A DNA stretch of 64,000 nucleotides from an uncultured Methanomassiliicoccales archaeon. Lineage in GTDB: Archaea > Thermoplasmatota > Thermoplasmata > RBG-16-68-12 > EA-27. Positions 1,415-51,916 of the stretch are shown here, one piece after another. A model generated the notes under the pieces. It saw only the letters and a program-made list of their open reading frames with translations. It had not been told where the DNA came from and did no database searches. A program made the translations under genes and the position numbers. Position 1 is the first letter of the stretch, and each line of letters begins with the position of its first letter. Where the stretch lies: NCBI GenBank assembly GCA_964396265.1, contig CAYNEM010000008.1, positions 72,500-136,499 on the forward strand, given 5' to 3'.

Positions 1415-2263
1415 ATGTCCCTGCGCATCGACGAAATGAGCGAGCGGAGCGCGCGGTTCCTCCTCGAGGGCATCGAGCCTGGATTCGCGAACGCGCTGCG
1501 CCGGAGCCTCATCGCGGACCTGCCCAAGCTTGCGATCGAAGATGTGGAGTTCCATCTCGGACCGATCCGGGCGGAGGACGGGAAGGAGGCGGAATCCGTC
1601 GCCCCGCTCTTCGACGAAATGATCGCCCACCGCCTCGGGCTCGTCCCGCTTCCCACGGACCCCAAGCTGTTCGTCCCCCGGGCGACGTGCCCCGCTTGCG
1701 GCGGGGAGGGATGTCCGAACTGCACGGTCATCTATTCGCTGAACAAGCGCGGACCTGCAACCGTCTACAGCGGCGACCTCGAGCCGGTCGGGGACGCCAA
1801 GCTCAAGCCCGTGGACCTGGGGATTCCGCTGGTGAAGTTAGGCGAGGGACAGGCGCTGCTCGTGTACGCGACCGCGCAGCTCGGGTTCGGCCGCGAGCAC
1901 GCGAAGTGGCAGGTCGCGCAGGCGGTCGGCTACAAGTACAAGCCCGTCGTGAAGGTCGACAACCGGAAGCTCGACGCGGACAAGTTCCCCCTCGATGTCT
2001 GCCCGCCGAACATCCTTCACAACCGCGACGGCAAGATCGTCGTGGAGCCCGAGGAGGCGTGCATCCTCTGCAACGCGTGCGTCGACGCCGCGAAGGAGCG
2101 CGGGTCCGAGGGCGCCTTCGACGTGTCGGGCGATCCGACGAAGATCCTGTTCCATCTCGAGACGGATGGCTCCATGGACGCGAAGACCGCTGTGCTCGAG
2201 GCGCTCTCTATGCTCGAGACGAAGTTCTCAACGGTTTCGGACCAGACGTCGGCGATGGAGTAA
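1415..2263 (+). CDS. rpoD: DNA-directed RNA polymerase subunit D (Rpo3), with Cys-rich 4Fe-4S-type insert
   Basis: MSLRIDEMSERSARFLLEGIEPGFANALRRSLIADLP matches the Rpo3 N-terminus. Two Cys clusters are present: CPACGGEGCPNC and CILCNAC. Start chosen at ATG 1415; the ORF is open from 1310, and GTG 1382 is an alternative start. Gene order S13-S4-S11-rpoD is the conserved archaeal arrangement. Confidence 0.88.
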   Translation: MSLRIDEMSERSARFLLEGIEPGFANALRRSLIADLPKLAIEDVEFHLGPIRAEDGKEAESVAPLFDEMIAHRLGLVPLPTDPKLFVPRATCPACGGEGCPNCTVIYSLNKRGPATVYSGDLEPVGDAKLKPVDLGIPLVKLGEGQALLVYATAQLGFGREHAKWQVAQAVGYKYKPVVKVDNRKLDADKFPLDVCPPNILHNRDGKIVVEPEEACILCNACVDAAKERGSEGAFDVSGDPTKILFHLETDGSMDAKTAVLEALSMLETKFSTVSDQTSAME

Positions 2264-5200: not shown

Positions 5201-6721
5201 CCCGCGATATGCCGCAGTCGGGGCACGGATGGCCTGCCACGCGGTCCAGTTGTCCTGGTCCGTTCCGGACCACAACCAGGCGTGTTGGCCGAGGATCGTC
5301 TGGTCGCCTCCATAGACCTCCAGGAGGAGGTCCGCGCCGACCGAGCCCTCGTCGTACCCGGTCAACCTGCTTCCGTCCGCGTCGACGAACACGTAGAGGA
5401 GATCTGTGTTCGTGGGTTGCACGAACCACGTCCCCCCGACGCGGGCATAGATGGACAGTCGGTTGTCCTGCCACTTCAGGGTGTACTCTCGGAGGTCGAC
5501 GTCCGCGTTGGCGGTGCTGGAACCCTGCGTGTACCCGGGCACCCTTTGCCAATCCGAGAAGTCGCCGTCGATCACCGAGCCCCCGAACACGGGCCCGAGA
5601 GGCTCCGGCAGGAGGAACGAGACGGAAAGCAGGAGGGCCGCGGCGATTGGCACGAGGTAGAGTTTCCATCGCCCCAAGCGCGCCTCGGCGGAGGACCGGG
5701 GACCCCCCAGCCCGTTTGTGAGTCCGAGCCCGTTGGTGAGGCCATTCGTGAGGCCGTTCGTGAGGCCTGCCCGAGTGCGCTGCAGGCCGTTGACGAGGCC
5801 ATTCACGCGTCCCGCCGCAAGGCCGTTGATTGCTCCCAGGCCTTCGGTCCCTCCCGTTCGGAGGCGGACCGTTCCCCTCGGACGCGTGATCGCGCCGGGG
5901 CGTGGTGCGAGGGGGACCCTCTTTGCCCGGGCGGCGCGGTCCCGAGTGTCAGCCCGCTCGAGAAGCGTCGCCATCTCCGCTTCGATGCGCCAGATCTGAT
6001 GCGGGGAGCGGAACAGCGCTCGCACGCGCGCGATGTCCGCCTCGAGGCCATCTGCGTCGAGGGACTTCATGGTGTCCTCGAGGACCTGCACCTTGCGCAC
6101 GTTCTGGTCGAATTGGAAGAACGCCGTCCTAACGCGATCGGGGTCGTCGCGGGCGACGGCCCGAAGAGGGCCGACTTCAAACCCCGCGGCTTCCCACGCT
6201 GCGAGCCTTTCCTCGGGCGTCTCTGCGGATCCCTCCGGTCTCGTGAGCGAAGCAAGCTCCTCGAGCCCCCGGACCGCCTCCCTCTCGGCAACTTCCTCCT
6301 CCGCCGCGTGGAGCCCGTCGAGCTCCTCCGTCAGGGACGTCAGGGCTTCCTCGACGCTCGATTCTCCCGACGGCGGTTGGCCTCCGGCGGCCTGGATGGC
6401 CTTCCGTTCCGCTTCGGCGGCTTCCTCCGTCCGCCCCAGGCGGCCTAGGACGAACGACAGGAGGACCTGGAGACGGCTGAGGGAAGGATCCAGGGATTCC
6501 GCCTTGCGGAGGGCCGCCAACGCGTCGTCCCATCGATCGAACTCTGAGAGGAGGATCCCCTTCCGGAACCACAGCGTGGGATCGTCCGGGGCGCGCTCGA
6601 GCGCGGCGTCGACATCCGCGAGGGCACTCTCTGTCGGGCGCTCCTCGCGCTCGGCACGAGCCCACTTCTCAAGGAAGTCCTTGGCGAACTTCCGTCGCTC
6701 CTTGTCCTCCTCTTCCGCCAT
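2228..6721 (-). CDS. Giant membrane protein (1497 aa): cytoplasmic TPR-like N-domain, one TM, extracellular integrin-alpha-like FG-GAP beta-propeller, C-terminal VPEP-CTERM-like sorting/anchor signal
   Basis: N-terminal ~330 aa are helical and TPR-like (WFRKGILLSEFDRWDDALAALRKAESLDP), with a coding TNGL repeat (GLTNGLTNGLTNGL; 12-nt DNA repeats ~5710-5790). TM helix WKLYLVPIAAALLLSVSFLL. At least 7 FG-GAP-type repeats follow, e.g. FGYSVAAGKFNGDGFWDALV, FGYNFAVGKVDSDAYADVVVGEP, FGLSVALGTINADAYADLAVGSP, CGNSVTVVDLDGDGTAGVFFGAP. The C-terminus is AEVPEPAAVLLPVALMIGLGARLLHRRRLVRNR, i.e. a VPEP motif + TM + Arg cluster. Its last 12 codons overlap the convergent rpoD 3' end. Confidence 0.8.
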   Translation of the reverse strand: MAEEEDKERRKFAKDFLEKWARAEREERPTESALADVDAALERAPDDPTLWFRKGILLSEFDRWDDALAALRKAESLDPSLSRLQVLLSFVLGRLGRTEEAAEAERKAIQAAGGQPPSGESSVEEALTSLTEELDGLHAAEEEVAEREAVRGLEELASLTRPEGSAETPEERLAAWEAAGFEVGPLRAVARDDPDRVRTAFFQFDQNVRKVQVLEDTMKSLDADGLEADIARVRALFRSPHQIWRIEAEMATLLERADTRDRAARAKRVPLAPRPGAITRPRGTVRLRTGGTEGLGAINGLAAGRVNGLVNGLQRTRAGLTNGLTNGLTNGLGLTNGLGGPRSSAEARLGRWKLYLVPIAAALLLSVSFLLPEPLGPVFGGSVIDGDFSDWQRVPGYTQGSSTANADVDLREYTLKWQDNRLSIYARVGGTWFVQPTNTDLLYVFVDADGSRLTGYDEGSVGADLLLEVYGGDQTILGQHAWLWSGTDQDNWTAWQAIRAPTAAYRGSELEVQVDLTDIVAIDDSLGRVVIHTDDQAGSRASSQVAFGPTHGALEVVQEAVGPTVARAPGTDFVNVTFRAAGSSVRVDALTFDRLGITPPIDGFSPLVVAVGQPRTLTLTVDASGLATSALLSADLVAIDADRPVVIRGPPTRAYVTRIPDERTVDGIFTEWTAQSSDTDEVSNANVDLERFESAVQNGTAHVYAAVRGTALGGAVHPEARVRPVPGQAAPPPPPGVPARVVGEDVIRVFFDTNLTEGGVGVGGIVADTLLDIRGRNGRVRAVEGFRWQSGRWIAAGTAKAFASGGELEGSLDVAGVDLRGADFVVESQDWQGTGDRTAVEGVRGTRSSMGGITFIRRYEATLPRGTGGLVTFEIPGQGSVSWTLPEFLVEGSGGEALLTSPGTGSVIADEAGMTYADAYAGMEATVAYEAESTRLKETITVFAPPPVGVGDTLAIETRLAAYGDLFVEVAGDGSAEEIRIEGDFILTDGRGLRIAMSRPWAEDASGDRVDLSFRWRQGALAVLVPGAWLAAASYPVLVDPTTYQIENDGASEDPGEQMGFSVAMGDFNNDGLADLLTGAPRNNLNLSLHGYAYIFYGPLDASKTIPDVRIRGTSTDAQHGYSVAAGKFNGDGFWDALVSSRSVAGIAGNVSVYYGGSSWSGLEETPDLEFTPPSGALNFGWYVAAGNLDNTSFDEVLIGETGRDNDGGLASQDGVVHVYKAPFSSPESTSDFTLKPSTNSAGQFGYNFAVGKVDSDAYADVVVGEPFQSSNSGRVHFFKGSNMTSGSGDRLPEATLIAQASAEKFGLSVALGTINADAYADLAVGSPGRTTNVGGGYVFLANSDGTGLTSGASPDATLAGLTSTEQCGNSVTVVDLDGDGTAGVFFGAPTADVGGTDRGRAYWFDSPTTDQTVDETFTGAQDGERLGTSVASGRFASDPLWRVAIGANAWDDTGQADSGRVLVAEVPEPAAVLLPVALMIGLGARLLHRRRLVRNR
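5710..5790 (-). repeat. Coding 12-nt tandem repeat (TNGL x ~5) inside the FG-GAP giant gene
   Basis: Plus-strand period-12 unit gttggtgaggcc/gttcgtgaggcc encodes GLTNGLTNGLTNGLGLTNGL. Confidence 0.6.
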
Positions 6722-7689: not shown

Positions 7690-10600
7690 TCAGGCGATAG
7701 GCTGCGTAGGACCGGGCTTTCCTTCTCGCGCCTCGACGAGGGCCAGCAAGTCGGCTTCGGACATGCGGTATCCCTTTCGCCAGATCGCGAGGGCGACTAC
7801 GAGGCCCACCGTGAGGACCGCCGTGTTCGCCCAGAATCCGAGGGGGAGCCAATTCCCCGCTTCCGGGATGCGGAAGACGCCGGTCGTGAGCGACAGGACC
7901 CCAATGGCGGCCTCCCCGACCGCGAACGGCACCGCCAGCAGCATGCGCGTGAATCGTCGATCAAGGGTGACCTTCTCGTCAATCTCCGGAATCGACAGTT
8001 CTTCGAGCTTCTGCATCAGGGGGAGCCCCGCCCATCGCAGGGCACGGGCCTTCCGGTCCCCGTCTTTCGGCATGGGCACGTGTCGGTCCAGTGGACGGCT
8101 CGCGAGCGTGACGCCCGCGACGAACAGGCCGGTCGCGTAGACCAGCGCGAGGAGAGGCTTCCAGTTCGCAGACAGAGGCGCTGGCGGTGCCGCCTGAGAC
8201 ATGTACACAATGACGACGTCGAACGCGGAGTTCACCGTGAATCTGGTGGCATTCTGCGTAAACCTCGGCGGGTCCCCGGTCGTTCGGTTGGACACCTCGA
8301 GAGACCGGGCCGCATCTGCCCACGGGAACACACCGCCGATCACCGCCATCTGCATGATGACGATGCCTTCCTCGGACCACGAAGCGGTGACGGAGTGACG
8401 TTCATCGGTCCCGAGAATCGTGACCCGGGGTCGGTACTGGTGGCGGTAGGAGACGATCGTGTCCAGCGGCGCATCAATTCGCCACTCCGTCGTGCCGAGA
8501 GTCCGGTACCGTTCGCGCTCGCCCGGGAAGATGGCGTCATCCACACGGACGGCCGAGCCCGCGTCGACCCAGGCGGTCCATGCGTCGGACACGTTCGCGA
8601 GTCCCGCGGCCGCGAAGGCGGTGAAGTCCAGGGACACCGGGAGCCCGTCGAGGCCTGCGACGCGCACGTTGGTGGTGAACTGGTGCAGGTAGTGGACCGT
8701 CGCTGATAGCGGCGCGTCGACGGTCCAGAGCGTGGGGTCCGCGGTGAGGAACCTCTCCCCCACCACTCCCGGCACGAGTCCATCGACGTCGAGCGCGGAC
8801 GCATCGTCCACCCACGAAGCAAACGAGTCGTACAGCCTGTCCGAGCGGTCGCTGCCGAACAGCGTGAACCCGATTCCCGCAGGCCACGCGGCCGAGAGCC
8901 CGATCAGGGTGAGTGTTGCAGGATGCTGCAGGGCATAATTGGCGGTGATCGTCGCGTCCACGGATCCGACGGTTACGGTGTGGTCGATTGCGCCGCCATC
9001 GTCCCATCCGAGGAACGCAAGGCGCGAGCCGCCGAACGAATCGAAGTCGATCGAGGCGATGCGATGGAGTTCGCCCGGCTGCCAAACGAACGTCGCAGGG
9101 ACCGTGTAATCCGTCCCATCCACTTGGACGACGCCCCAATCCGGGGAGCGGGTGATCGTGTAGGAAACGTAGGTCGGGCAGACGGTCCAGAACAACCAAG
9201 GGTTCGGCACAGGCCCCGGCCCCAGAGAAGTGCCATCGAGGTCGGTGCCCGATGTGACGGTGACCGTGTACAACATGCACTCGGAGAAGGCCTGATGGAC
9301 GAGGTCCAAGGTCCGGGTGTCCACCCAAACGGGGTTGGTTGCGACGGACGGCGCGACCGTCCACGCGACCGAGCTGGAGTCCATGTCCTCGCTGAACTCG
9401 ATGCGGATCGTCGCATCGAGTGCGACGTCCACCGCACCATGCACCGGCGTCGTGGCGGTGATGAAGGGCGGAGTCGTGGCCGCGAGCACCTCGAGGATTC
9501 CCTGGGGGATCTCCTGATAGATAGTCGAATTGTCCCAGCGCACGTAGGTGGCTCGCGCATCCGGGCTTAGGCCGATGGCCTGGACCCCGAGCCGCGTGGA
9601 CGTCACGCCGTACTGCACCGCCCACGTCTCGTTGATGTCGATGCTGCTGACGTTCCACTGCAGGACCGTCCGGTCCGCGAGCCGGACCATGAACTCCGGC
9701 GGCCTCGGCATGCCCGACATCGGGTCCACGAAGCTACCGGGCACGACGTTCAGGTACGGCAGGATCGCGTCGGCCACCATGGGGGTGACGTCCGTGGGGT
9801 CCGGGTCCACGCCGGCCGTGCGGTTGATGCGCGTCCCGATGTCCGCGTAGATCTGGAGGAGGTCCTGCGGCGTGCTCGCCTGGTAGAACCGTCCTCCGGT
9901 CGGGATCGCGATGTTCTCGAGGAACGTCTGGTCGATGCTCGAGCCGAGTCCGATCGTGTAGATCACGATGCCCTCAGTGACCGCTTGGTTCACGATCGCG
10001 TTCGTGTTGGGGCACGGCAGACCGGCGGGCACCGTGCACTGCCCGTCCGTGAGCAGGATCTCCACGCGCGTCCGCGTGCGGTCGGAATACGTAATGAGCC
10101 ACGTGTTCCCCACTTGGAGCGCGTCGTCGATGTTCGTGCCCCCGAAGCAGCCCGGGCTGCACGCCGTGGTGTTCGCGTCGTTCATCAGGTCGATCTTCCC
10201 GGGCAGGGTCGTGTACGTGAGCGGGCGTCCGTTCACGACCCATGCGACATCCGAGAACCCGACGATGGAGGCCCGGTCGTCCACACGCATGCCGCCGATG
10301 TAGGAGTTCACTGCCTGGACGCGCACGTTCGACGGGTCGTTCGAGTTCATGCTACCCGAGACGTCGATCTGGAAGATGACGTCCTGGGGGACCTGGATCT
10401 CGACGGGGAGGCCAGCGCCCTCGATGAGGATCGTGACGTTCGCGACCTCGTTGTACGGCGACCCGGATCCTTCGAGGTACACCGTCCCCGGGATCACTGT
10501 GCGGTAGATGTCGAAGTGGGGGCTTAGTCCGATGCGCAGCCTGACGGACGCGCGGGCGACAGCCTTGGACGCGGCACTCGCGGACACGATGATCGTGTTC

Positions 10601-13095
10601 CCGTCCCCGAGCGGGGCCACGGACGGGATCTGGACCTCGGCGAGGAACGACGCGCTGCCCGAAGGACCGAGGACACCGAGGTCCGGGGTCGCGTCCGGGT
10701 CCGCTGCGGAATCCGACAGGGGCGTGCCGTTCGTCCATGTGTACGTGACCGGCCAGTTCGGCATCGCCGACGTGCCGTCCACGTTGATCACTTCCGGGAC
10801 GGACTGTCGGTTCGTCGCGGTGAGGAGAAACGCGATCGTGGTGCCGATGTCCGTGAGGATGCTCGAATCCTGTGCGAGTCCGACGAGGGCGAGGGACGGG
10901 ACTGCGTCGAAGGACCATCCGTTCGCGACGGCGCTGGGATCGTCGTGGGCACGTGAACCGCCGACGCCGGCGTTGCGGGTCGCGCTCAGCCCTGCCGTAT
11001 GCGCGGAATCCCAGCCAAACATGTCGAGGAGCCGACCGCTCGCATCGTAGAGGTACAGGTTGTCCGTCGCAGCGTCCAAGGCCGCCCACCACCCGGGGCC
11101 CGCGGATTCGAAGAAGAAGGCGTACGGGTTCGCCCCGTCGATCAGTCCGCCCGAGAAGGTGTACACGGAGTCCGCGACGAGGCGGTACCCGGTGAGGTCG
11201 GCGCTCGTCCGGGCGAAGATCTCCGCGAAGAGGTCCCCGGGCGCAGCCGGGTTGAAGAGGACCTCGTTGAGCACCACGGGCGGTGCGAGGTTTGGCGGCG
11301 GCACAAGGTTCCGCGCGCCGAAGGTCGACGCCACGGAGCGCGTCCAGGAGGTCACGTAGTCGAGCGTCCCCGCGAATCGTGCGGTCGACTCCGCCCCGAG
11401 CGGATCGGGCGCGATCCCGTACGGCCCGGATCCCGCCTTCGCGAGGACGTCGGCCCCCCGTTCGATTCGGACGAGCGCGCCCTCCGTCCCGAGGTCCAGC
11501 GCCGCCACAAGGTCCGCGCCCGTCGCCCCGACTACGACGTGGCTCCGCGCGGGCCAGGTCCCGAGGGGGGTGAGGTCCACGACGGATGCCCCTGCATACA
11601 TGGTCGCTCCGCTGAAGTCGAACGCCGTCCGGCCGAAGTTGTAGATCTCAACGCGTGCCTCGGGCGTGGGTGTGTCTTGGACTTCCGTGATCACGAGCGG
11701 AGACACCTGGACCGAGGTTGCGTACGTGTCGTACGTCCCGCCGCGCGCGTCGTCCCAGACCGCGAAAACCCCGAATCCGCCCGTCCTCAGCGTCGGGCTA
11801 ACCTGGATGGTCGCGTCGTCGGCCGGGTTCGCATTCCGGTCCGTGTCGTCGAGGCGCAGGTCGTTCCCGTTGACGACGCCGTCCCCCCAGGTGATTCCGT
11901 CCGCAGACCACGCGGCGTAGGTGTCGTAGTCCCCCGCACGGTTGTCGTCCCACGCGACCCAGATCGTCCCGGCGAGGGCGGACACGGAGGCCTGTCGCAT
12001 CGAGACGGGGGTGATGAGCGCATCATCGACGGCGACGGGCGGGGACCAGCTGGTCCCGTCGTGGCCCCATGCGTACATGGCGTGGGCGATCGTGGGCGTC
12101 TGCGACTCGATCCAAGCGACGTGCGCGACCAGCATATCGTCCACGAACACGTCCGGCGCGAACAGGTTCGCAGTCGGGTTCGCGGCCATGGAGACGACGG
12201 CGGTGGTCCAGCTCGCCCCCGCATCGTCGGATCGTGCGACGCTGATCGCCGGTCCGTTCCCGAGGACCTGCCGCCAGGCCACGGCGATCGTGTCGCCCTT
12301 CGCGTCGATCCGCGGTTGGAGGTTCGTCGCGCTCAGGGACGAGACCTGGACCTCGGCGCCCCAGGTGGCCCCCCCGTCGGGCGACCCCCGGAAGTAGACG
12401 TGAAAGGCCAGCGGGTCACGGTTGTCTGCCCAAACCGCGTAGAGGCGGCCCGACGTCGCTGCGATCGTCGGCGTGATCGACGCGTTGTTCGCCGGCGCGC
12501 TGTCGATGCGCCGAGGCGCGCTCCACGACACGCCGTTGTCCGACGAGACGAACCAGACGTCCGCGTTCGGTCCTGCCTCCGTCTGGTAGGCGACGTACGC
12601 ACGCCCCTGGACCGGGACGGCCTCGCGCTCCACGACGATGCGGGGGAACGACACGTTCCCGAGGGCCCCGTCCACGCGCACCGTGGGGCTCCAGGAGACG
12701 CCGTCCGCGGAGCGGGAGTAGTAGGCACCCCGGGGCGACGTCTTGTTCTCGGAGCGCACCACATGGAGGACGCCGTTCGCGTCGACCGCCAGCGACGGGT
12801 TCCGAGCGTCCGTCGGGCCGGGCTCGATGGGGACGTTCACATCCGCGGTCGGCAGCGCATTGACGGACAACGGCTGGGGGAGGATCGTGAGAATCAGGAG
12901 TGAGAGCGCGACGAGCGCGAATGTGCGCAAGGGTCTTGCGGGGACCCTGTCCGGCGCTCGGCGCCCTGCCTGGGCATGGGCTCCCGACCCTCCCTTTTCC
13001 ACCGCGCGGGCATTCGTCACGGGGACTAAAAGGAATCCCCCGAATGGTCTTCGCGTGCGCAGTCGGACGCTCGCGTTCTCTCCTCTCTCTATCAT
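7690..13095 (-). CDS. Giant surface protein (~1800 aa): signal peptide, BNR/Asp-box sialidase-like beta-propeller, vWA domain with MIDAS, Ig-like domain, C-terminal TM anchor with cytoplasmic tail
   Basis: Many Asp-box motifs SxDxGxTW (SADGVSWSP, SSDNGVSWSA, SPDGGATWGA, SDDAGASWTT, GHDGTSWSP, SADGITWGD). vWA/MIDAS: VIFQIDVSGSMNSN...IVGFSD...LLTDGQ...IYTIGLG. Ig-like: ATTPVHGAVDVALDATIRIEFSEDM. C-terminal TM segments are LLALVYATGLFVAGVTLA and AAIGVLSLTTGVF, plus a cytoplasmic tail. The ORF is open to 13341, but a signal peptide (RTFALVALSLLILTILPQPLSVNA) points to a start at ATG 13095 or TTG 12930. Confidence 0.8.
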   Translation of the reverse strand: MIERGENASVRLRTRRPFGGFLLVPVTNARAVEKGGSGAHAQAGRRAPDRVPARPLRTFALVALSLLILTILPQPLSVNALPTADVNVPIEPGPTDARNPSLAVDANGVLHVVRSENKTSPRGAYYSRSADGVSWSPTVRVDGALGNVSFPRIVVEREAVPVQGRAYVAYQTEAGPNADVWFVSSDNGVSWSAPRRIDSAPANNASITPTIAATSGRLYAVWADNRDPLAFHVYFRGSPDGGATWGAEVQVSSLSATNLQPRIDAKGDTIAVAWRQVLGNGPAISVARSDDAGASWTTAVVSMAANPTANLFAPDVFVDDMLVAHVAWIESQTPTIAHAMYAWGHDGTSWSPPVAVDDALITPVSMRQASVSALAGTIWVAWDDNRAGDYDTYAAWSADGITWGDGVVNGNDLRLDDTDRNANPADDATIQVSPTLRTGGFGVFAVWDDARGGTYDTYATSVQVSPLVITEVQDTPTPEARVEIYNFGRTAFDFSGATMYAGASVVDLTPLGTWPARSHVVVGATGADLVAALDLGTEGALVRIERGADVLAKAGSGPYGIAPDPLGAESTARFAGTLDYVTSWTRSVASTFGARNLVPPPNLAPPVVLNEVLFNPAAPGDLFAEIFARTSADLTGYRLVADSVYTFSGGLIDGANPYAFFFESAGPGWWAALDAATDNLYLYDASGRLLDMFGWDSAHTAGLSATRNAGVGGSRAHDDPSAVANGWSFDAVPSLALVGLAQDSSILTDIGTTIAFLLTATNRQSVPEVINVDGTSAMPNWPVTYTWTNGTPLSDSAADPDATPDLGVLGPSGSASFLAEVQIPSVAPLGDGNTIIVSASAASKAVARASVRLRIGLSPHFDIYRTVIPGTVYLEGSGSPYNEVANVTILIEGAGLPVEIQVPQDVIFQIDVSGSMNSNDPSNVRVQAVNSYIGGMRVDDRASIVGFSDVAWVVNGRPLTYTTLPGKIDLMNDANTTACSPGCFGGTNIDDALQVGNTWLITYSDRTRTRVEILLTDGQCTVPAGLPCPNTNAIVNQAVTEGIVIYTIGLGSSIDQTFLENIAIPTGGRFYQASTPQDLLQIYADIGTRINRTAGVDPDPTDVTPMVADAILPYLNVVPGSFVDPMSGMPRPPEFMVRLADRTVLQWNVSSIDINETWAVQYGVTSTRLGVQAIGLSPDARATYVRWDNSTIYQEIPQGILEVLAATTPPFITATTPVHGAVDVALDATIRIEFSEDMDSSSVAWTVAPSVATNPVWVDTRTLDLVHQAFSECMLYTVTVTSGTDLDGTSLGPGPVPNPWLFWTVCPTYVSYTITRSPDWGVVQVDGTDYTVPATFVWQPGELHRIASIDFDSFGGSRLAFLGWDDGGAIDHTVTVGSVDATITANYALQHPATLTLIGLSAAWPAGIGFTLFGSDRSDRLYDSFASWVDDASALDVDGLVPGVVGERFLTADPTLWTVDAPLSATVHYLHQFTTNVRVAGLDGLPVSLDFTAFAAAGLANVSDAWTAWVDAGSAVRVDDAIFPGERERYRTLGTTEWRIDAPLDTIVSYRHQYRPRVTILGTDERHSVTASWSEEGIVIMQMAVIGGVFPWADAARSLEVSNRTTGDPPRFTQNATRFTVNSAFDVVIVYMSQAAPPAPLSANWKPLLALVYATGLFVAGVTLASRPLDRHVPMPKDGDRKARALRWAGLPLMQKLEELSIPEIDEKVTLDRRFTRMLLAVPFAVGEAAIGVLSLTTGVFRIPEAGNWLPLGFWANTAVLTVGLVVALAIWRKGYRMSEADLLALVEAREGKPGPTQPIA

Positions 13096-13118
13096 CTGAG
13101 ATAACCGAGAAAGGCCCC

Positions 13119-13125
13119 TTAAATA
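13119..13125. promoter_or_regulatory. TATA-like box (TTAAATA) in the 73-bp divergent intergenic region between two giant genes
   Basis: The A/T-rich element ccTTAAATAgcg is the only such element between minus-strand start 13095 and plus-strand start 13169. It lies ~44 nt upstream of GTG 13169. Confidence 0.4.
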
Positions 13126-13168
13126 GCGAGCCGACCCGTGAAAAGGTAGCCAGTCTCCCGGGGAGAGT

Positions 13169-16100
13169 GTGTCCTCGCAGCATCGGCCCCAACGAGCCAT
13201 AGGCCACCGAGTGCCGGCCCTCGCGGTCGCGCTCTTCAGCGTGTTCGCTTCCCTCCTCGCGGTGATCCCGCGGGTCACCTCGGATCCGTGGGTGACCGCC
13301 AACGGGGACGGCACCTCGGACGCCGTGTGGAACTTCAGCAATCCAGGGGACTACGTCCTTACGAACACGCAGATCAGCGGGGGCGCCGGGCTGCTGGCGT
13401 CCGCAGGTCCGGGCGTCCAGTACTGGAACAGCACGACTGCGGGGGACTTCGCCGGCCCGGACTCCGCGACGAACGTGGACTTCACAAGTTCTCCGGGGGA
13501 CGTGATGCTCGCGACCACCTCCGGCGCTTCGACGCTCCTCGTGCTGCAGCCGGCCGCCACGGGCGAGGATTCCTGGCTGGAGGAGTTCAACCCCACCACG
13601 ACCCACGGAGCCGAAGCGTTCATGTCCGCCGATGGGACGGGCTCGCGGCGCCGGCCGGTGCTCCGGTTTGACCTTTCCTCACTCCCGGTGGGTGCCGTGA
13701 TCGACGGCGCCGTTCTCTACCTGTACCAGTACACCGACGCTGACGGCACCTCGGTTGTCATATCCGTGCACGAAGTGATCGCAAGTTGGACCGAGGCCGA
13801 TGTCACGTGGGACGACCGGAACGCGGTGAGTGCGTGGGCGTCCCCCGGCGGCGACTACGATCCTCACGTCATCGCGCAGGCAACGATCGACGCCGCGAAC
13901 AACGTGTGGCGGTCCTGGAACATCACCCAGCTCGCAGACCTGTGGTACCGCGGCGTGCGCCCGAACAATGGTCTTATCTTGGTCACACCGTCCGCAGCCG
14001 TCCAGCTGAACAAGGACTTCCGATCGTCCGACTACGGGGTGGCGGCCGAACGACCCCGACTGGAGATCCGATACCGTATCTTGGGCGCAACCGGAGAATA
14101 CGTATCGCAGGTTCTCGGGCCGGGCACGCCGACCGCTTGGCAGACGATTTCGTGGAACCCATCGGTCCGCAGCCTCGTCGCGGACGAGTTCAACGGTGCG
14201 TCGCTCGACCCGAAGTGGACCTGGCTCAACGCGCCCGCGTCGTTTGACGTGGGAACGACGCTGCCGGGAAACCTACACGTCGTCTCCACCGCCAATTCGC
14301 AGATCGACGGCGCCACGTTCACAGGAAACGCGTTGTGGAACGATGTTGTCGGCGACTTCAGCGCGGAGATGAAGTTCAGCAGTTCGCCGACGGCGAGCAG
14401 CAATCGCGTGGGCCTCATGGCCTTGCTCTCGCAGCGGGACTGGTTCTCCGTCGGGAAACATTATTCTGGCGGGGTCGCGAACTGGATGACCCGCGAGACG
14501 GTCGACGCGGTCACGACAACCATCTTCAACGGGGCGAGCGGCAACCCAATCCCCGCATGGGTCCGCCTCGTGCGGACGGGGAACACGTTCGACGCGTGGA
14601 CGAGTTCGGACGGAACCGCCTGGACCTTGCGGGACACATACGCGCCCTCGGACCAGTACCCGCTGGCGATCCGGCTCGCATTCTACATCGCACACGGGGC
14701 GGCGGGCTCGGGCTTCTCGGCCGACGTGGACTACATCCGAGTCACGCACGGCGCCGGCGCGACGGTCTCCGTGTCGACGCGGACCGGCGACACGAACCCG
14801 GTCGACGGGACGTGGTCCGGCTGGTCCGCCTCCTACCCGTTGTCCTCTGGGTCGGCGATGGCGGGGACCTCGAACTTCGTCGAGTACCGCCTCTCCTTCG
14901 CCGTCTCCACCGCCTCCCCCGACCACCGTCCCGTCGTCGGGGATGTGAACATGACTTCAGGGACCGCGTCCTACGTGGCCGCGGGGACGATCGAGACGAA
15001 CGATCTCGTTCCCGCAGACCTCCAGCAGTGGGGAACCCTCACCGTCGCCGACGCCCCGAACGGGCAGACCGTGAGCTACGAATACTCCCTCAACTCCGGC
15101 GGGAGCTGGACGCCCGTCGTACCCCCCGCGGACCTTTCGGGCGTGAGCGTCGCATCCGGACGGATCCGCTTCCGCGTCTCGCTCTCCACCTCGGACAGCC
15201 AGTTTACCCCCACGGTGAGCGAGATTCGCCTCACGTACACGCACCGCCTCGACCACTTCTACGTGACCGCCTGGGCGGCTGCGGCCGCGGGCGCGCCCTT
15301 CTCGGTCACGGTCACCGCCAAGGATGCCGCGAACGCGACGATCCTGAGCTGGACGGGCACCGTGACGTTGGCGGCGCGCCTCCTCGACGGCATCACGCCC
15401 GGCAACGGCATCCTCGGCACCACGAGCCTCGTGATCTCCGCGGGCGGCACCGCCACCCTCGCGACGGAGAACTACACGCGCACTGAGACGATCCGGATTC
15501 ACGCTTCCTTCGGAGCCCAGGAAGGATTGAGCGGTCCGGTCCTCATCTCCCCAGGCCCGATCGTCCGCGTCGTCGTCGCGCCGCCCTCCGTCACGCTCTT
15601 GCCCTTCGCGAGCCAGTCCTTCACCGCCACCGCGTTCGACGCTTGGGACAACCCCGTGCCGGGAGCCGTGTTCGCATGGATCGTCACGAACGGCGTCGGG
15701 ACACTGAACACCTCCTCCGGTCCGACCGTGACCCTGACCGCCCAACCGCCCGACGGTGCGAATGGGACCCTGGAGGCGACCGCCTCCGGCGTCACCGGGG
15801 TTGCGCTCATCACGGTGGGGATCCCGAGCCTCGACCACTTCTACGTCACCGCGTCTGCGTCCGCGGCGGCGGGAGCACCGTTCTCGGTCACCGTCACCGC
15901 CAAAGATGCGACGAACAACACGATCATGAGCTGGAACGGCACCGTCACCCTGGCGGCCCGTCTGCTCGACGGCATCACGCCGGGGAACGGGATCCTCGGC
16001 ACGACGAGCCTCGCGATCTCCGCCGGCGGCACCGCGACGCTTGCGACGGAGAACTACACGCGCGCGGAGACGATCCGGATACACGCTTCCTTCGGAGCCC

Positions 16101-19100
16101 CGGAGGGGTTGAGCGGCCCCGTGGTGATCACCCCCGGCCCCATCGCTCGGGTGGCGGTCGCGCCGCCCGTCGTCACCGTCCTCCCCTTCACGAACCAGTC
16201 CTTCACCGCTTCCGCGTTCGACGCCTGGGACAACCCCGTGCCCGGCGCTGCGTTCACGTGGGTCGTGACGAACGGCGTGGGCACTCTGAACACGTCCGCG
16301 GGTACGACCGTCACGATGACCGCCCAGCCGCCGGTCGGGGCAATCGGGACCGTGGAGGCGACCGCCTCCGGCATCACCGGAGTCGCCGCGGTCACCGTCG
16401 GGACGCCGACGCCTCCCTGGGTCGTGATTACCGCCCCTAACGCCGGCGCCAGCATCACGGGGACCGCTTCCATTGCTTACTCGTACAGCCCCGACACGGT
16501 CCTCGCCACGTTCGACTACGACGCCGGCGCGGGCTGGGTCCTCATCGGGAACACGTCGTCGCCGACGGGCACGTTCCCCTGGGATACGACGGGCGTCGAC
16601 GCCGTGGGCGTCGTGCTCCGCGCCTGGGTCGAGAACGCGGCCCTCATGACGAATCAGACGACCGTGACCCCGATCGAGATCGACAACACGGCGCCGACGA
16701 TCGCCATCGGCACCATCACGGACGACCAGGCGACGGCCGGGACCGTGACGATCGCCTACACCACTGCCGCGGACGTCGCCCGCGTGGACTTCACCTACTT
16801 CGACGGAGCTTGGCAGACGGTCGGGACGGACCTGACCATTGACGGCACCTATGTCTGGTCGCCCGGAGTCGCGATCAACGGCGTCACGCTCCGCGCAGTC
16901 GCCACGGACGAGGTCGGCCTCTCCGGCGCGGATGCCAAGCAGGGGGTCGGGACGCGAATCGTCGGCACAAACCCGCCCGCGATCGCCGCCATTCCCACCC
17001 TGTACGTCCGAGTTACCGCCGCGTACGATCTCAACCTCACGTTCTATCTCTCCGACCCCGATACGCCCCTGTCCGGACTGGCGGTGACGACGTCCGACCC
17101 GGCGAATGTGACCGCGTTCGCAGGGGCGTATCCCTCCCTGCGCGTCACCTATGCCGCGGCAGGCACCTACAACGTCACGCTCTGGGTCTCCGACGGCACC
17201 GACACCGCGTGGCGCATCGTGCGGGTGATCGCGTCCGGCACCAACCCGCCTGTGCTTCTCGCTCCGCTCGGGACGGTAACGTTCGACGAAGACACAGTGC
17301 TCTCGGACGCGCTCGGGGTGCTGACCACGCGGTTCTTCGATGCCGACGGGGACAACCTCACGTTCACGGTACTCGGCGCCGCTGTGATCAGTTGGCGGCT
17401 GAACCCGAACGAGACTCTGGACCTCTGGGCCTCGGCGGACTGGTTCGGTTCCGAGATCGTCCGCGTGCGGGCGTCCGACCCCTCGGGGGGATTCGCGGAG
17501 GCTCCGCTCGTCGTCGTCGTGCGCCCCGTCAACGACGCTCCGGTCCTGGCGGTGATCGCTCCCCTCCGTTGGACACGAGGCGAGTCCCGCACCCTCGACC
17601 TCACCCCCTACGTGTCCGACGTGGACACGCCGCTCGCCCAGCTGATCGTGACGACCGACAGCACCCACGTCCGCGTGAACGGCCTCGTGCTGACGATGGC
17701 GTTCCCGTCGAACTGGACCGAGGCCCAGTTCACGGTCTCCGTGTCCGACGGCCCTGCGCAGGCGTCGCAGCTCGTCCGGGTGACGCTCCTGCCCGGGTGG
17801 TGGAATCCCATGTATCTCCTTCTGCTTCCGGTTTCGGCATTTGGTTTGGTGATTGGTGTGATGGCTCGACGTGCGCGTTGGAGGCCCGCAAAGGCCTTCC
17901 TTGTGGATGACAGGAACGAACTGATTCGAGAGTTCACGATGGACACTGCGTGCGAGGTCACGTGGGAACAGGTCAGCGCGGCCGGGGCGCTGCAGGCCGT
18001 CGACGAACCCGTCAAGATCTCCAAGTACCGTGCGCAGACGGTCCGGGGCGATGCCCTCGGCCTGGTGCTCCTCGCGTACGGACCCGTGAACCACGAGCAG
18101 ATCGAGTTCGCGCGAGAGATGCTCGTGAACATCCAGGGCAAGTTCGAGGATCGCCTGAACACCCGACTCGAGCAGAACCGCGAGTTCGAGTCCCAGGTCC
18201 GCACGCTTCACGAGGAGCTGCAGAGCAAGCGCGAGGCCTTCGAAACGCGCTCCCGCGCCTTCGCAGGGATGTTCGACGCGTGGACGACCGCCCAGACAAA
18301 GATGGCGGCGGAGTCAGTGTCCATCCGGGCGACCCTGGCTGACGTGGAATCCCGGGAGGAAAGCCTCATCGAGGGCGGACACAACCTCGACCGGGAGCGC
18401 GCGACCCTTCGGAAGGAGCGCGAAGAGTTCACGGCCCTCGCGGATCGCCTCAAGCAGGAGATGGACCGCCGCACCGTGGAGCTCGAGAATCGGGAGGACG
18501 TCCTCGGGACCATGGACAGCAAGGTGAAGGAGGAGCGGAAGTCGTTCGACACGCTGCGGCAGGAGAAGATGCAGCGTCTCGCGTCGATGGACGTGGAGAT
18601 CGAGGCGAAGGCGAAGAGCTTCGAGGAGCGGGAGGCCGCGGTGAAGTCCCAGGCTGAGGAGAACGCCCGTCTTCTCTCGGATTTGGCGGCGCGCGAGGAG
18701 ACCCTGGAGATCGAGGGCGACCGCGTCGAGCGGCTCCGCCAAGAGGTCGACCAGCGCAAGGCCCAGACCGACGTCACCGCGCGCGGCATCGACGCGCGCG
18801 TTTCGGCGGTGCGGGACCAGGAGGCCCGCAAGTCCGAGGAGTATCGGAACCTGGAGGCGACGCTCGAGTCCCGGGAGTCGGTCCTCCGCGAGCAGGAGAA
18901 GGCGTTCCAATCGCAGATGATGAACCTCCACGAGACGGCGAGCGCGAAACAGCAGATGCTCGACGGCCGCGAGGGGAAGGTCGGAGAGCTCGAGTCGAAG
19001 ATCCGCGCGGAGGCGGACCGGATCAAGAAGACCGTCGACGATTTCGGCAAGCGGGAGCAGGCGGCGCAGGACGCCCTGCGCGATGCCCGTGCCCTTAAGG

Positions 19101-20257
19101 CGGAGAGCGACGCCGCCCACGATGCCCTGGAACGCCGGTCCATGGAACTGGACGAGCGCGAGGCGTCCCTGGGCTCCGAGGTCGAGCGCCGCCGTGCGGA
19201 GGTGGTCCGCATGGAGCAGGCGATGAAGGTTTCCGAGGGCGATCTCATCTCCCGGCGGGCAGAGGTCGAGACAGCCGAGCGATTCCTCGACCGCCAGATG
19301 GACGAGATCCACGAGGCCACGAGGAACGTGACGAGCCGCGAGACGGACGTTGCGGCGACGGAACGAGACCGTGAAGGGCGGGAGGCGAAGCTCGCGGCAC
19401 GGACCACAGATCTTGCTACCCTAGAGCGGGACCTCTCAGGGCGTCGGAGCACGATCGAGGAGGAGTCGAGCAGGCTCGCGAGGGGTCAGGTGGATTTCGA
19501 GGCGAGGCGCCGGGAGTTCGAGGCGCGCGTCGCGTCGGCCGATGCGACCCTACGAGATCTCTCGAACCGCGAGCGGGAGGTCGTGGGGCGGGAGAACGCG
19601 TACAAGGCGCGCGAGACCGCGCTGCAGTCGCGGGAATCGGAGTTCCTCCGGCGCGAGATGACGTTCCGCGACCGGGAGTCCCAGTTCGATCATGTCCTCC
19701 GTGGGATTGAGCAGCGCGAGGCGGTGCTCGCGGCCCGCACCGCGAAGATCGACGAGGAGCTCCGCACCGCGACCTCGCTCCGCGAGGAGGCGAAGTCCGA
19801 GAAGGAGAACACCGAGCAGGCGAAGACCGCGGCGGACGCCCAGCAGGCCGAGGTCGCACGGACCATGAAGTTCCTGCAGAAGAAGGCGGTCGACATCCTC
19901 GACCGCGAGGAGCAGCTCCGGAAGCGCGAGAAGAAGCTTGAGGAGACGGAGCGGATCCTGGACTCCCAGGTGGAGATCGTCGAGACCCAGCGCACCGCGA
20001 TCGAGGTGGAGCGTTCGGAGTCCGGGTCCAGGATCTCGCGCCTTCAGGCGGAGATAGAGCGGATGCGCGCGATCGTCGCGGATGCGGATCGGCCCTCCGC
20101 AGCGAGAGGCGCCTGGAGCCCCGAGGCGGAGAAGGACATCGAGAACCGCCTGAAGATCATCCAGCAGAAGGCGTTCGCCCTCCTCGACCGCGAGGAGCGG
20201 CTCCGGGAGCGCGAAGAGGAGCTCAACACGCGGGAACGCCTCATCACGCACCGGTAG
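13169..20257 (+). CDS. Giant membrane protein (2362 aa): signal peptide, LamG/ConA-like domain, tandem Ig-like (Big) domains, cadherin-like region, single TM, ~800-aa cytoplasmic coiled-coil tail
   Basis: Signal peptide RVPALAVALFSVFASLLAVIPRVTS (GTG 13169; alt GTG 13211). LamG-like block WNDVVGDFSAEMKFSS...VRLVRTGNTFDAW. Two ~90%-identical 194-aa Ig-like repeats. Cadherin-like VRPVNDAPVL. TM WWNPMYLLLLPVSAFGLVIGVMARRARW. The C-terminal 800 aa are charged heptad-rich (E/R/K/L), with recurring motifs KKAVDILDREEQLRKREKKLEETERIL and QKAFALLDREERLREREEELNTRERL. Stop TAG 20255-20257 abuts the convergent ygfZ stop. Confidence 0.8.
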   Translation: MSSQHRPQRAIGHRVPALAVALFSVFASLLAVIPRVTSDPWVTANGDGTSDAVWNFSNPGDYVLTNTQISGGAGLLASAGPGVQYWNSTTAGDFAGPDSATNVDFTSSPGDVMLATTSGASTLLVLQPAATGEDSWLEEFNPTTTHGAEAFMSADGTGSRRRPVLRFDLSSLPVGAVIDGAVLYLYQYTDADGTSVVISVHEVIASWTEADVTWDDRNAVSAWASPGGDYDPHVIAQATIDAANNVWRSWNITQLADLWYRGVRPNNGLILVTPSAAVQLNKDFRSSDYGVAAERPRLEIRYRILGATGEYVSQVLGPGTPTAWQTISWNPSVRSLVADEFNGASLDPKWTWLNAPASFDVGTTLPGNLHVVSTANSQIDGATFTGNALWNDVVGDFSAEMKFSSSPTASSNRVGLMALLSQRDWFSVGKHYSGGVANWMTRETVDAVTTTIFNGASGNPIPAWVRLVRTGNTFDAWTSSDGTAWTLRDTYAPSDQYPLAIRLAFYIAHGAAGSGFSADVDYIRVTHGAGATVSVSTRTGDTNPVDGTWSGWSASYPLSSGSAMAGTSNFVEYRLSFAVSTASPDHRPVVGDVNMTSGTASYVAAGTIETNDLVPADLQQWGTLTVADAPNGQTVSYEYSLNSGGSWTPVVPPADLSGVSVASGRIRFRVSLSTSDSQFTPTVSEIRLTYTHRLDHFYVTAWAAAAAGAPFSVTVTAKDAANATILSWTGTVTLAARLLDGITPGNGILGTTSLVISAGGTATLATENYTRTETIRIHASFGAQEGLSGPVLISPGPIVRVVVAPPSVTLLPFASQSFTATAFDAWDNPVPGAVFAWIVTNGVGTLNTSSGPTVTLTAQPPDGANGTLEATASGVTGVALITVGIPSLDHFYVTASASAAAGAPFSVTVTAKDATNNTIMSWNGTVTLAARLLDGITPGNGILGTTSLAISAGGTATLATENYTRAETIRIHASFGAPEGLSGPVVITPGPIARVAVAPPVVTVLPFTNQSFTASAFDAWDNPVPGAAFTWVVTNGVGTLNTSAGTTVTMTAQPPVGAIGTVEATASGITGVAAVTVGTPTPPWVVITAPNAGASITGTASIAYSYSPDTVLATFDYDAGAGWVLIGNTSSPTGTFPWDTTGVDAVGVVLRAWVENAALMTNQTTVTPIEIDNTAPTIAIGTITDDQATAGTVTIAYTTAADVARVDFTYFDGAWQTVGTDLTIDGTYVWSPGVAINGVTLRAVATDEVGLSGADAKQGVGTRIVGTNPPAIAAIPTLYVRVTAAYDLNLTFYLSDPDTPLSGLAVTTSDPANVTAFAGAYPSLRVTYAAAGTYNVTLWVSDGTDTAWRIVRVIASGTNPPVLLAPLGTVTFDEDTVLSDALGVLTTRFFDADGDNLTFTVLGAAVISWRLNPNETLDLWASADWFGSEIVRVRASDPSGGFAEAPLVVVVRPVNDAPVLAVIAPLRWTRGESRTLDLTPYVSDVDTPLAQLIVTTDSTHVRVNGLVLTMAFPSNWTEAQFTVSVSDGPAQASQLVRVTLLPGWWNPMYLLLLPVSAFGLVIGVMARRARWRPAKAFLVDDRNELIREFTMDTACEVTWEQVSAAGALQAVDEPVKISKYRAQTVRGDALGLVLLAYGPVNHEQIEFAREMLVNIQGKFEDRLNTRLEQNREFESQVRTLHEELQSKREAFETRSRAFAGMFDAWTTAQTKMAAESVSIRATLADVESREESLIEGGHNLDRERATLRKEREEFTALADRLKQEMDRRTVELENREDVLGTMDSKVKEERKSFDTLRQEKMQRLASMDVEIEAKAKSFEEREAAVKSQAEENARLLSDLAAREETLEIEGDRVERLRQEVDQRKAQTDVTARGIDARVSAVRDQEARKSEEYRNLEATLESRESVLREQEKAFQSQMMNLHETASAKQQMLDGREGKVGELESKIRAEADRIKKTVDDFGKREQAAQDALRDARALKAESDAAHDALERRSMELDEREASLGSEVERRRAEVVRMEQAMKVSEGDLISRRAEVETAERFLDRQMDEIHEATRNVTSRETDVAATERDREGREAKLAARTTDLATLERDLSGRRSTIEEESSRLARGQVDFEARRREFEARVASADATLRDLSNREREVVGRENAYKARETALQSRESEFLRREMTFRDRESQFDHVLRGIEQREAVLAARTAKIDEELRTATSLREEAKSEKENTEQAKTAADAQQAEVARTMKFLQKKAVDILDREEQLRKREKKLEETERILDSQVEIVETQRTAIEVERSESGSRISRLQAEIERMRAIVADADRPSAARGAWSPEAEKDIENRLKIIQQKAFALLDREERLREREEELNTRERLITHR
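15247..16410 (+). repeat. Tandem intragenic duplication, 2 x 582 bp (Ig-like domain pair)
   Basis: Units 15247-15828 and 15829-16410 both start ctcgaccacttctacgt (LDHFYVTA...). They encode ~90% identical 194-aa segments (...APFSVTVTAKDA...LAARLLDGITPGNGILGTTSL...TETIRIHASFGA...). Confidence 0.85.
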
Positions 20258-46864: not shown

Positions 46865-46902
46865 GCCACGACGCCTCCCCCAGTCCTGCGCGGAGGGACA
46901 CG

Positions 46903-47421
46903 ATGAGCGAGGAGCGCACGGAAGCCCAGACGGCAGAGCCTGCGGCCCCCGAGGTGGATGCCGAGATCGCACGCCTCCGCTCCGAACTCCAGGTGACAAC
47001 CGAGCGCGCGACTGAGCTGCTCGATCGCGCCCGGCGTGCGCAGGCGGATTACGAGAACCTCCAGAAGCGCACCGCGCGGGAGGCGGAGGAGGTCCGCGAG
47101 GTGGCGAACGAGAGCCTCCTCGCTTCCCTCCTCCCTCTCCTCGACGACTTCGACAGCGCGGTGGCCGCCATCCCGGGCGAGGCGGGGGAGGGCGTGCGTA
47201 TGCTCCGGGAGAAGCTGTGGGGCGTGCTCGCGGACGCGGGCCTCGAAGCCGTGAACCCCGCGAAGGAATCGTTCAACCCGTACGAGCACGAGGTCGTCGG
47301 GCGGGCGAACGACGAGGATTTAAGCGACGGAACCGTGAGGGAAGTCGTGCAGAGGGGATACCGGTACCGCCGGCGCCTCCTCCGGCCCGCGAAGGTCATC
47401 GTGGTCAAGCGAGGTGAGTAG
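46903..47421 (+). CDS. grpE: Nucleotide exchange factor GrpE
   Basis: Coiled-coil N-terminus plus [16 protein letters not shown]… GrpE signature. Immediately upstream of dnaK. Confidence 0.85.
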
Positions 47422-47423
47422 CG

Positions 47424-49259: not shown

Positions 49260-49287
49260 GGCCGCTACGATGCCCGCGCAGCCGGGG

Positions 49288-50418: not shown

Positions 50419-50429
50419 GGATCCAGTCA

Positions 50430-51885: not shown

Positions 51886-51887
51886 CG

Positions 51888-51895
51888 TTTATTAA
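51888..51895. promoter_or_regulatory. TATA-like box (TTTATTAA) 22 nt upstream of cdc48 GTG start (leaderless)
   Basis: aacgTTTATTAAccg. No other A/T element precedes GTG 51917. Confidence 0.4.
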
Positions 51896-51916
51896 CCGAG
51901 GCTAGCTTGAATCGCC

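Follow-up and report, generated by a model that had tools for sequence, protein, structure and literature searches.

A giant single-pass protein with a long predicted cytoplasmic tail

The stretch of DNA analysed here (64,000 nucleotides, called the window below) belongs to an uncultured Methanomassiliicoccales archaeon (assembly GCA_964396265.1, contig CAYNEM010000008.1, positions 72,500 to 136,499) and has a G+C content of ~67%. At 13169..20257 on the plus strand, the strand of all features of the protein given below, it carries a gene for a bitopic membrane protein in which a large surface region is joined through one transmembrane (TM) helix to a predicted cytoplasmic tail, itself composed of a longin/roadblock-like domain, a helical rod and a conserved end module. 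The open reading frame (ORF) is the longest of its region, begins with GTG and, with the stop codon included in these coordinates, encodes 2362 amino acids (aa). The NCBI gene call for the same protein (P0014) starts 14 codons later, at an alternative GTG (13211), and gives 2348 aa. The codon signature is that of a genuine gene, with a G+C content of 0.88 at third codon positions (GC3) and 0.51 at second positions (GC2), and GC3 is even over the whole length.

Using a Kyte-Doolittle threshold of 1.7 and a 19-residue window, only two hydrophobic segments were called. The first (aa 15-33, 13211..13267) is preceded by R6, R9, H13 and R14 and would act as a signal peptide or signal anchor. The second (aa 1548-1566, 17810..17866), also evident from the family alignment, is the only internal TM helix and bears a conserved WW..Y motif at its outer end. 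It is directly followed by RRARWRPAK, of which RRARWRPA (17867..17890) is a stop-transfer/juxtamembrane motif whose R, W, R and P are invariant across the family. An ectodomain of 1,514 aa and a post-TM tail of 796 aa (nt 17867-20254) result. N-x-S/T sequons are above expectation in the ectodomain (21 observed, 13.2±3.1 expected) and not enriched in the tail (1 observed, 2 expected), and paralogues with the same longin and coil cassette carry neither signal peptide nor TM. Taken with the charges at both hydrophobic segments and the typically extracellular domains of the ectodomain, these observations lead us to predict that the tail is cytoplasmic and that the ectodomain, of glycan-binding/adhesin type, is outside. 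The other giant surface proteins of the window stop a few residues past a C-terminal TM, which makes the long tail special to this ORF.

An earlier note, made by reading the DNA alone, had described an adhesin-like ectodomain, one TM and a long cytoplasmic helical rod. The hydrophobic segments, the domain matches and the AlphaFold2 (AF2) models described below agree with this layout, while the positive-inside charges, the sequon enrichment confined to the ectodomain and the signal-less paralogues agree with a coiled coil inside rather than outside the cell.

A juxtamembrane domain with a longin/roadblock-like fold

An alpha/beta globular domain begins eight residues past the membrane (aa 1575-1664, 17891..18160, delimited by alignment, AF2 and fold search), and its last helix runs into the rod. 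This domain, which the earlier note did not mention, is the best-conserved part of the protein. When ten relatives were aligned, the TM and the next ~110 residues showed 71% identity per column, with R-W-R-P, KAFLVD, REF, a Cys, KY..QTV.G, LL..GP and EFARE.LV invariant; the Cys, KYxxQTVxG and EFAREhLV are motifs of the domain itself. AF2 modelling on the ten-relative alignment reached a pLDDT of 76.7 overall and 80-89 in the juxtamembrane domain, where the TM helix is followed by elements in the order strand-strand-helix-strand-strand-strand-helix, as in the longin fold. The same elements were recovered in the model of the full tail.

Structural neighbours of the juxtamembrane model include the Asgard Rag roadblock domain (8.4), COPI delta/zeta, AP sigma, SR-alpha SRX and the VAMP7 longin domain. 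Foldseek gave the same neighbour ranking with weak E-values, starting from 8e-3. The Pfam families Longin (PF13774), Clat_adaptor_s (PF01217) and Robl_LC7 (PF03259) are unmatched in the query or any of the ten family members; the query tail found nothing in Pfam, and the juxtamembrane profile nothing among PDB sequences, at E<=10. With no PF03259 match and with the helix-first topology (helix-strand-strand-helix-strand-strand-strand) absent, the domain falls outside Roadblock/LC7. Since no Pfam profile matches and the Foldseek E-values are weak, we describe the modelled domain as longin/roadblock-like at the level of the fold only. The proposal that the whole tail is a coiled coil holds for most of its length, the boundary suggested by the earlier note (~17880-20257) fitting nt 17867-20254 well, and does not hold for the first ~90 aa, which are globular.

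The helical rod and its C-terminal module

Composition, heptad score and AF2 define a helical rod at aa 1665-2306 (18161..20086) with heptad periodicity and no proline. The tail as a whole is rich in E, R, K and L, has an AT skew of 0.27 and is devoid of proline from aa ~1640 to 2308. The AF2 model of the full tail is ~88% helical and contains five helices of 44-204 residues; those of the rod span aa 1642-1735, 1741-1861, 1886-2089 and 2127-2306, with breaks at EGGHN and at two low-confidence stretches. The heptad score of the tail (a/d positions, 28-residue windows) is 0.45, compared with 0.24±0.12 for shuffled tails. If the 643 helical residues form one extended coiled coil at 0.148 nm per residue, the rod would be ~95 nm long, and in relatives with 1,390-aa tails extended rods would reach ~200 nm.

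NCBIfam and Pfam matches over the rod are sub-threshold and of coiled-coil type (Mplasa helix-rich, SMC arms, ASRP), with faint CRWN_N/HmpF matches in relatives. The CRWN_N match (PF27881, a plant lamin-like coiled coil) occurs on several relatives, is graded faint on one, and was set aside as uninformative. Within the rod, the orthologue alignment reveals a conserved island at aa 1807-1866 (18587..18766, ...AVKSQAEENARLLSDLAAREETLEIEGDRVE...) that shows ~50% identity to orthologues, as against 20-35% in the flanking rod.

The tail ends in a module composed of a motif A, a helix of ~45 aa, a Pro/Gly linker and a motif B. Motif A (aa 2233-2264, 19865..19960, MKFLQKKAVDILDREEQLRKRE...) was identified by repeat scan and alignment. 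The linker (aa 2307-2317, 20087..20119, DRPSAARGAWS), placed by alignment and AF2, is the only one in the tail. Motif B (aa 2321-2359, 20129..20245, EKDIENRLKIIQQKAFALLDREERLREREEEL...), seen in the alignment and in a metagenome scan, lies 39-52 codons before the stop in relatives. A diagonal scan aligns aa 2236-2263 with aa 2331-2358, ungapped, at a BLOSUM62 score of 78, the best pairs in 40 shuffles scoring 43±3.6 (maximum 53), and the corresponding DNA (19866-19938 and 20151-20223) is 84% identical over 73 nt. The two recurring motifs reported in the earlier note are therefore real. They share 16/32 residues, so that "near-identical" overstated the likeness. Other internal repeats of the tail are marginal (scores 52-56, shuffle maximum 53). 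A PDB search with a motif-B profile gave a best E of 0.066, at chance level, the last 147 aa drew no hit at E<=0.01 in a word-indexed protein search, and the family and PDB profile searches detected no DNA-binding or lipid-binding domain.

A small archaeal family with exchangeable ectodomains

When 1.84 billion cluster representatives were searched exhaustively with a profile, only 52 proteins reached E<=1e-3, and 23 of these E<=1e-30, the long members having the cassette and then 600-1,400 further residues. At the genome level, 33 loci were found, one per metagenome-assembled genome (MAG), labelled Thermoplasmata, Methanobacteriota, Methanomassiliicoccales or Euryarchaeota, and the isolate names of many of these MAGs point to soil surveys. 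The exception in labelling is a 1.7-kb contig (L017, DATEYD010000285.1) binned as 'Candidatus Paceibacterota bacterium'; as all other loci are Thermoplasmata, this is most likely a binning error. In source databases the relatives are named 'hypothetical protein', 'tandem-95 repeat protein' or 'chromosome segregation ATPase'. Nothing found in a full-text literature search describes the family, and its novelty lies in known folds set in an undescribed architecture with an undescribed operon. With its conserved islands and tiny, lineage-restricted family, the tail does not correspond to a common low-complexity S-layer linker, in keeping with the earlier note.

The order ectodomain, TM, longin-like domain and rod is repeated in more than 20 independently assembled MAGs and in many metagenome contigs. 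Among full ORFs at the genome loci, ectodomains measure about 280 to 3,350 aa and tails 1,040-1,680 aa, the tail length being exactly 1,385 or 1,392 aa in many species. Every complete genome-locus member ends ...(W)KKDVENRVKIIQKKAMDLLDREEKLRKKEEELRALAxQLGV. Relatives retain the TM, longin-like domain, rod and end module and have the ectodomain swapped or dropped. At least four ectodomain types occur: the DNRLRE/LamG/tandem-95 type of the window, a T/S/G-rich repeat-like type, one of more than 3,000 aa, and almost none at all, as in P0003 and P0024, where only ~20 residues separate the signal peptide from the TM. External contact coupling, which the earlier note had suggested, is thus not the core conserved function, and the conserved unit is the cytoplasmic cassette. 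The first ~880 ectodomain residues of the window protein are 52-57% identical to those at loci L002-L006 and L021, which bear the operon described below, and at L016 and L031; this identifies it, from sequence comparison, as an orthologue and not a stray paralogue. In several relatives (P0005, P0007 and L002) an intact rod start is followed by Arg/Gly/Pro-rich nonsense up to the ORF end, which looks like the product of assembly frameshifts or possibly reflects real truncation.

At ~14 loci, two genes on the same strand lie directly upstream of the giant gene and encode soluble paralogues with a longin-like domain and coiled coil (for example L003 3572-5868 and L002 4441-5868, with ~12 further Thermoplasmata MAG loci), an operon that the earlier note did not mention. 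In a local search both match the juxtamembrane-domain profile (E 1e-7 to 1e-4), with a coiled coil after it. The shorter has ~240 aa; the longer has ~466-480 aa, is very constant in length and ends in the module of motif A, linker and motif B. The other conserved neighbours at these loci look metabolic or housekeeping, as read from their sequences rather than from family-library scans.

A metagenome scan seeded on motif B found 80 loci, with the motif always 39-52 codons before the stop. A longin-like match close to the N-terminus was seen in 48 of the 59 motif-B ORFs with a complete 5' end, and most of the remainder are short with an uncertain start. The smallest motif-B proteins have 247-357 aa. 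The bauplan is therefore a longin-like domain joined to the end module by a rod whose length differs greatly between members, and the TM and ectodomain have been added to it. A distant TM-less subfamily was also noted (P0038, P0040, P0045, P0052 and P0056, e.g. L034 5375-7615), whose members start with MFGKKLxKGFLVD... and have a coiled coil of up to ~640 aa; one of these is annotated 'chromosome segregation ATPase'.

Ectodomain composition

The ectodomain contains a DNRLRE/CBM96/disaggregatase-repeat domain (aa 132-300, 13562..14068) that scores above the curated cut-offs of NF033679 (104 vs 34 bits), PF24517 (43.8 vs 26) and PF06848 (46.5 vs 33.9) and so belongs with the DNRLRE domain/CBM96 families. 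A concanavalin-A/LamG-like domain follows (aa 339-526, 14183..14746; DUF1349, GH43_C2-like), with 34.9 bits to DUF1349 (PF07081) vs a curated cut-off of 32.4, which bears out the LamG domain of the earlier note. Self-comparison reveals two tandem units of 194 aa (aa 694-887 and 888-1081, 15248..16411), probably Ig-like, that are 83.5% identical as protein and have a 300-nt core 85% identical in DNA. They stem from a recent tandem duplication in frame, and the unit has no match in Pfam. The cadherin-like character proposed earlier is suggested by a single tandem-95 repeat (aa 1372-1460, 17282..17548), a weak match below the curated cut-off of NF012211 (31 vs 90 bits), and by homologues, which carry precomputed Cadherin_4/5 and Big_9 matches and several tandem-95 copies, some being named tandem-95 repeat proteins. 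The membrane-proximal segment (aa 1461-1540, 17549..17788), aligned by eye and with no family match, is common to P0001, P0006, P0008 and P0010 and absent from beta-helix-type relatives.

Genomic neighbourhood

The gene is separated by a divergent intergenic region of 73 bp (13096..13168) from a minus-strand neighbour. This region contains TTAAATA at ~13121 and GGGGAG at 13160-13165, just before the GTG, and on reading its sequence we suppose that it may serve as a promoter. The neighbour (7690-13095, minus strand) encodes ~1800 aa with BNR, lamin-tail (LTD), VWA and Big_5 domains, and near its C-terminus are three hydrophobic segments. Taken at its longest, the ORF of this neighbour runs over the start of the gene studied here, and it probably starts at the ATG at 13095. 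Further along the minus strand (2228-6721) lies a gene for 1497 aa with a TPR region at aa 20-106, no signal peptide, a TM at aa 354-372 and FG-GAP repeats after it. Here too a surface protein has a considerable cytoplasmic portion. It carries a C-terminal anchor (...VPEPAAVLLPVALMIGLGARLLHRRRL); its C-terminus resembles an archaeosortase-type sorting signal, for which it is a candidate.

The earlier note regarded these two genes as a divergent integrin-like pair and raised their co-occurrence with the giant gene. VWA and FG-GAP neighbours are indeed present on the minus strand. With tblastn (E<=1e-10), no homologue of either turned up in the 10 kb or so around the 33 loci, and the association is therefore local and not conserved.

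Elsewhere in the window are genes for ribosomal protein S4, RNA polymerase subunit D, thermosome, GrpE-DnaK-DnaJ, Cdc48, glutamine synthetase and glycine-cleavage T protein. Since the window encodes such ordinary housekeeping and biosynthetic genes, the host is a free-living archaeon and not a reduced symbiont, and nothing in it points to the episymbiont-host interface that had been suggested. The chaperone cluster (45200-54133) comprises thermosome, GrpE (46903-47421), DnaK, DnaJ and then Cdc48, and has a purine-rich strand bias (AT skew 0.19-0.25) similar to that of the coiled-coil tail. A second giant ORF (31181-38281, minus strand) encodes 2366 aa with fn3 and purple-acid-phosphatase-N domains and a C-terminal cluster of about 6-8 hydrophobic segments (aa ~2067-2353). 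This region may be a foreign island, given its G+C content of 0.58-0.62 vs 0.67 elsewhere. At 54660-56126 (minus strand) lies a gene for a 488-aa SPFH/Band-7 protein of membrane-scaffold type with a flotillin-like C-terminal region; no link was found between it and the giant gene.

Comparison with known systems

Longin domains occur in adaptor mu/sigma subunits and in the SNAREs VAMP7, Sec22 and Ykt6. The window protein has no profile match to them, and its order is TM-longin-coil in contrast to the longin-coil-TM found there. Its coil is also more than 10 times the length of a SNARE motif, and it has a giant ectodomain and a non-Asgard archaeal host. A SNARE identity was rejected on these grounds: R-SNAREs have a ~60-aa motif before a C-terminal TM, whereas here the TM precedes the longin-like domain and the ~640-aa coil ends free in the predicted cytoplasm. 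For Lokiarchaeum, a 2016 review reports that coiled-coil and SNARE domains are absent from the longin-like proteins (PMC4917890). Roadblock/LC7 proteins (MglB, MglC, LAMTOR, the Asgard Rag C-terminal domain) are helix-first, whereas the only helix before the strands of the window domain is the TM helix; the family further differs from them in having neither a nearby GTPase partner gene nor a Pfam Robl_LC7 match.

Weak rod matches were obtained to SMC/Rad50-type and lamin-like proteins (SMC_prok_B, ASRP, plant CRWN, cyanobacterial HmpF), the SMC_prok_B match having an E of 1.5e-6 and 26 bits. The SMC models TIGR02168 and TIGR02169 score 26 and 21 bits vs cut-offs of 567 and 729, over the coiled-coil arms only, and the tail lacks a Walker A, ATPase head, hinge or lamin tail. 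These matches consequently reflect coiled-coil composition only, and the SMC/tropomyosin-like rod of the earlier note is not supported.

The bacterial EzrA, golgins such as giantin, CLIMP-63 and kinectin likewise combine a single TM with a long cytoplasmic helical rod acting as scaffold or tether. They lack a longin-like domain beside the membrane, an adhesin-type ectodomain of 1,500 aa and the duplicated C-terminal motif, and no sequence relationship to bitopic coiled-coil proteins was found in Pfam and PDB profile searches. By analogy of layout, the window protein may nevertheless work most like such scaffolds and tethers, EzrA and the golgins among them. Tetrabrachion-type stalks are likewise archaeal surface proteins in which a very long coiled coil is combined with a membrane anchor. 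Their coil is extracellular and their anchor C-terminal, in contrast to the predicted cytoplasmic coil of the window protein.

Proposed function and alternatives

Based on these features, we propose that the protein is a membrane-attached cytoplasmic scaffold or tether with an interchangeable surface domain, and assign this functional reading a probability of about 0.45. The longin-like domains would pair at the inner face of the membrane, as longin/roadblock domains generally do, the partner being either another copy or one of the soluble paralogues. The helices could then zip into a coiled-coil rod that either lines the membrane or extends into the cytoplasm. The end module would dock on its counterpart in other chains or on some partner that they have in common. 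Chains assembled in this manner would constitute a membrane-attached scaffold or tether, to which the variable surface domain is attached.

Several points weigh against this proposal. The 796-aa tail of the window copy is the shortest among complete members, and aligned with 15 orthologue tails it shows two large gaps, of ~504 and ~411 alignment columns. A tblastn search of the window found no copy of the two partner genes and no second longin cassette, and with the partner genes absent nearby, the window copy may work differently or be degenerating. The coiled-coil call, moreover, derives from a home-made heptad score and AF2 helices rather than from a calibrated predictor.

A more ambitious version holds that the giant and the two soluble paralogues make up a new archaeal membrane-skeleton or trans-envelope linker, physically joining variable surface adhesins to an internal lattice in Thermoplasmata; we regard this as doubtful. 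Equally tentative is the corresponding idea that such a linker system is built on three longin/roadblock-like domains and coiled-coil rods of defined length.

Alternatively, the protein might be a regulatory platform, the membrane-tethered longin/roadblock-like domain recruiting or regulating a small GTPase or other switch while the ectodomain acts as sensor and the rod as a spacer presenting the end module, for outside-in signalling or polarity marking. Dimeric platforms for small GTPases, a kind that includes MglB, Ragulator, AP mu/sigma and SR-alpha, indeed make up most of the best-ranked structural neighbours, and the longin-like domain is where conservation peaks. This is nonetheless unlikely: neither the window nor the 10 kb or so around each of the 33 loci encodes a G1-G3-G4 small-GTPase motif, some members have almost no ectodomain with which to sense, and rods of 800-1,680 aa are not easily accounted for as plain spacers.

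It also appears quite unlikely that the rod is a long-range tether linking the membrane to some other structure, such as the nucleoid, a vesicle or a further membrane, much as golgins or, loosely, longin-SNAREs do, with the end module as capture site. A membrane/longin end, a rod that varies from about 100 to 1,600 aa and a terminal motif that does not vary would suit such a role, as would the exactly kept tail lengths (1,385 or 1,392 aa in many species). The TM-longin-coil order is, however, reversed with respect to longin-SNAREs, there is no SNARE-length motif beside a C-terminal anchor, and the profile searches detected no DNA- or lipid-binding domain. These archaea are, moreover, not known to have internal membranes, which also counts against this role.

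A division or membrane-remodelling factor, in which a Vps4/Cdc48-type AAA ATPase would recognise the C-terminal motif D-I-E-x-R-h-K-I-I-Q as a MIM1-like peptide, would accord with our own reading of motif B as loosely resembling the MIM1 pattern [DE]xxLxxRLxxL[KR], and with the reduced ESCRT systems of some Thermoplasmata (PMC10936438). The acidic first and basic last positions of MIM1 are unmatched, however, no ESCRT-III or Vps4 gene adjoins any of the loci, and the Cdc48 gene of the window is 31 kb distant, making this very unlikely.

We give little credence to the coiled coil being an extracellular stalk, like tetrabrachion of the Staphylothermus S-layer, or a generic low-complexity linker. 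Archaeal surface proteins with long extracellular coiled coils exist and the tail is compositionally biased, yet the coil and an ectodomain built of typically extracellular domains are on opposite sides of the only internal TM, the charges after this TM are of the positive-inside kind, tail sequons are not enriched, the signal-less paralogues share the cassette, and conserved islands and motifs are present. Fusion of a surface-protein gene to a coiled-coil gene by mis-assembly or a lost stop codon, for which the presumed MAG source (shared with all 33 related loci) and the frameshifted ends of P0005, P0007 and L002 might argue, is hardly credible given the same order in more than 20 independently assembled MAGs and the uniform GC3 over the ORF. 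For the reasons given above, the SMC-like, SNARE, extracellular stalk, mis-assembly and episymbiont-interface readings were all rejected.

Implications

The family places a longin/roadblock-type domain, a long coiled coil and a membrane anchor together outside the Asgard archaea, and so adds to the prokaryotic parts that bear on how eukaryotic trafficking scaffolds arose. Should the linker-system proposal be true, it would put a longin-plus-coiled-coil-plus-TM module in a non-Asgard archaeon. Three unannotated signatures, the RWRP-longin cassette, the central rod island and the KIIQKKAxxLLDREEKLR end module, could be turned into family models. Several cultured Thermoplasmata have no rigid wall, and the maintenance of their shape is poorly understood. 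A conserved, membrane-anchored rod of 100-200 nm, together with its soluble paralogues, is a candidate membrane skeleton or tether in these abundant soil archaea.

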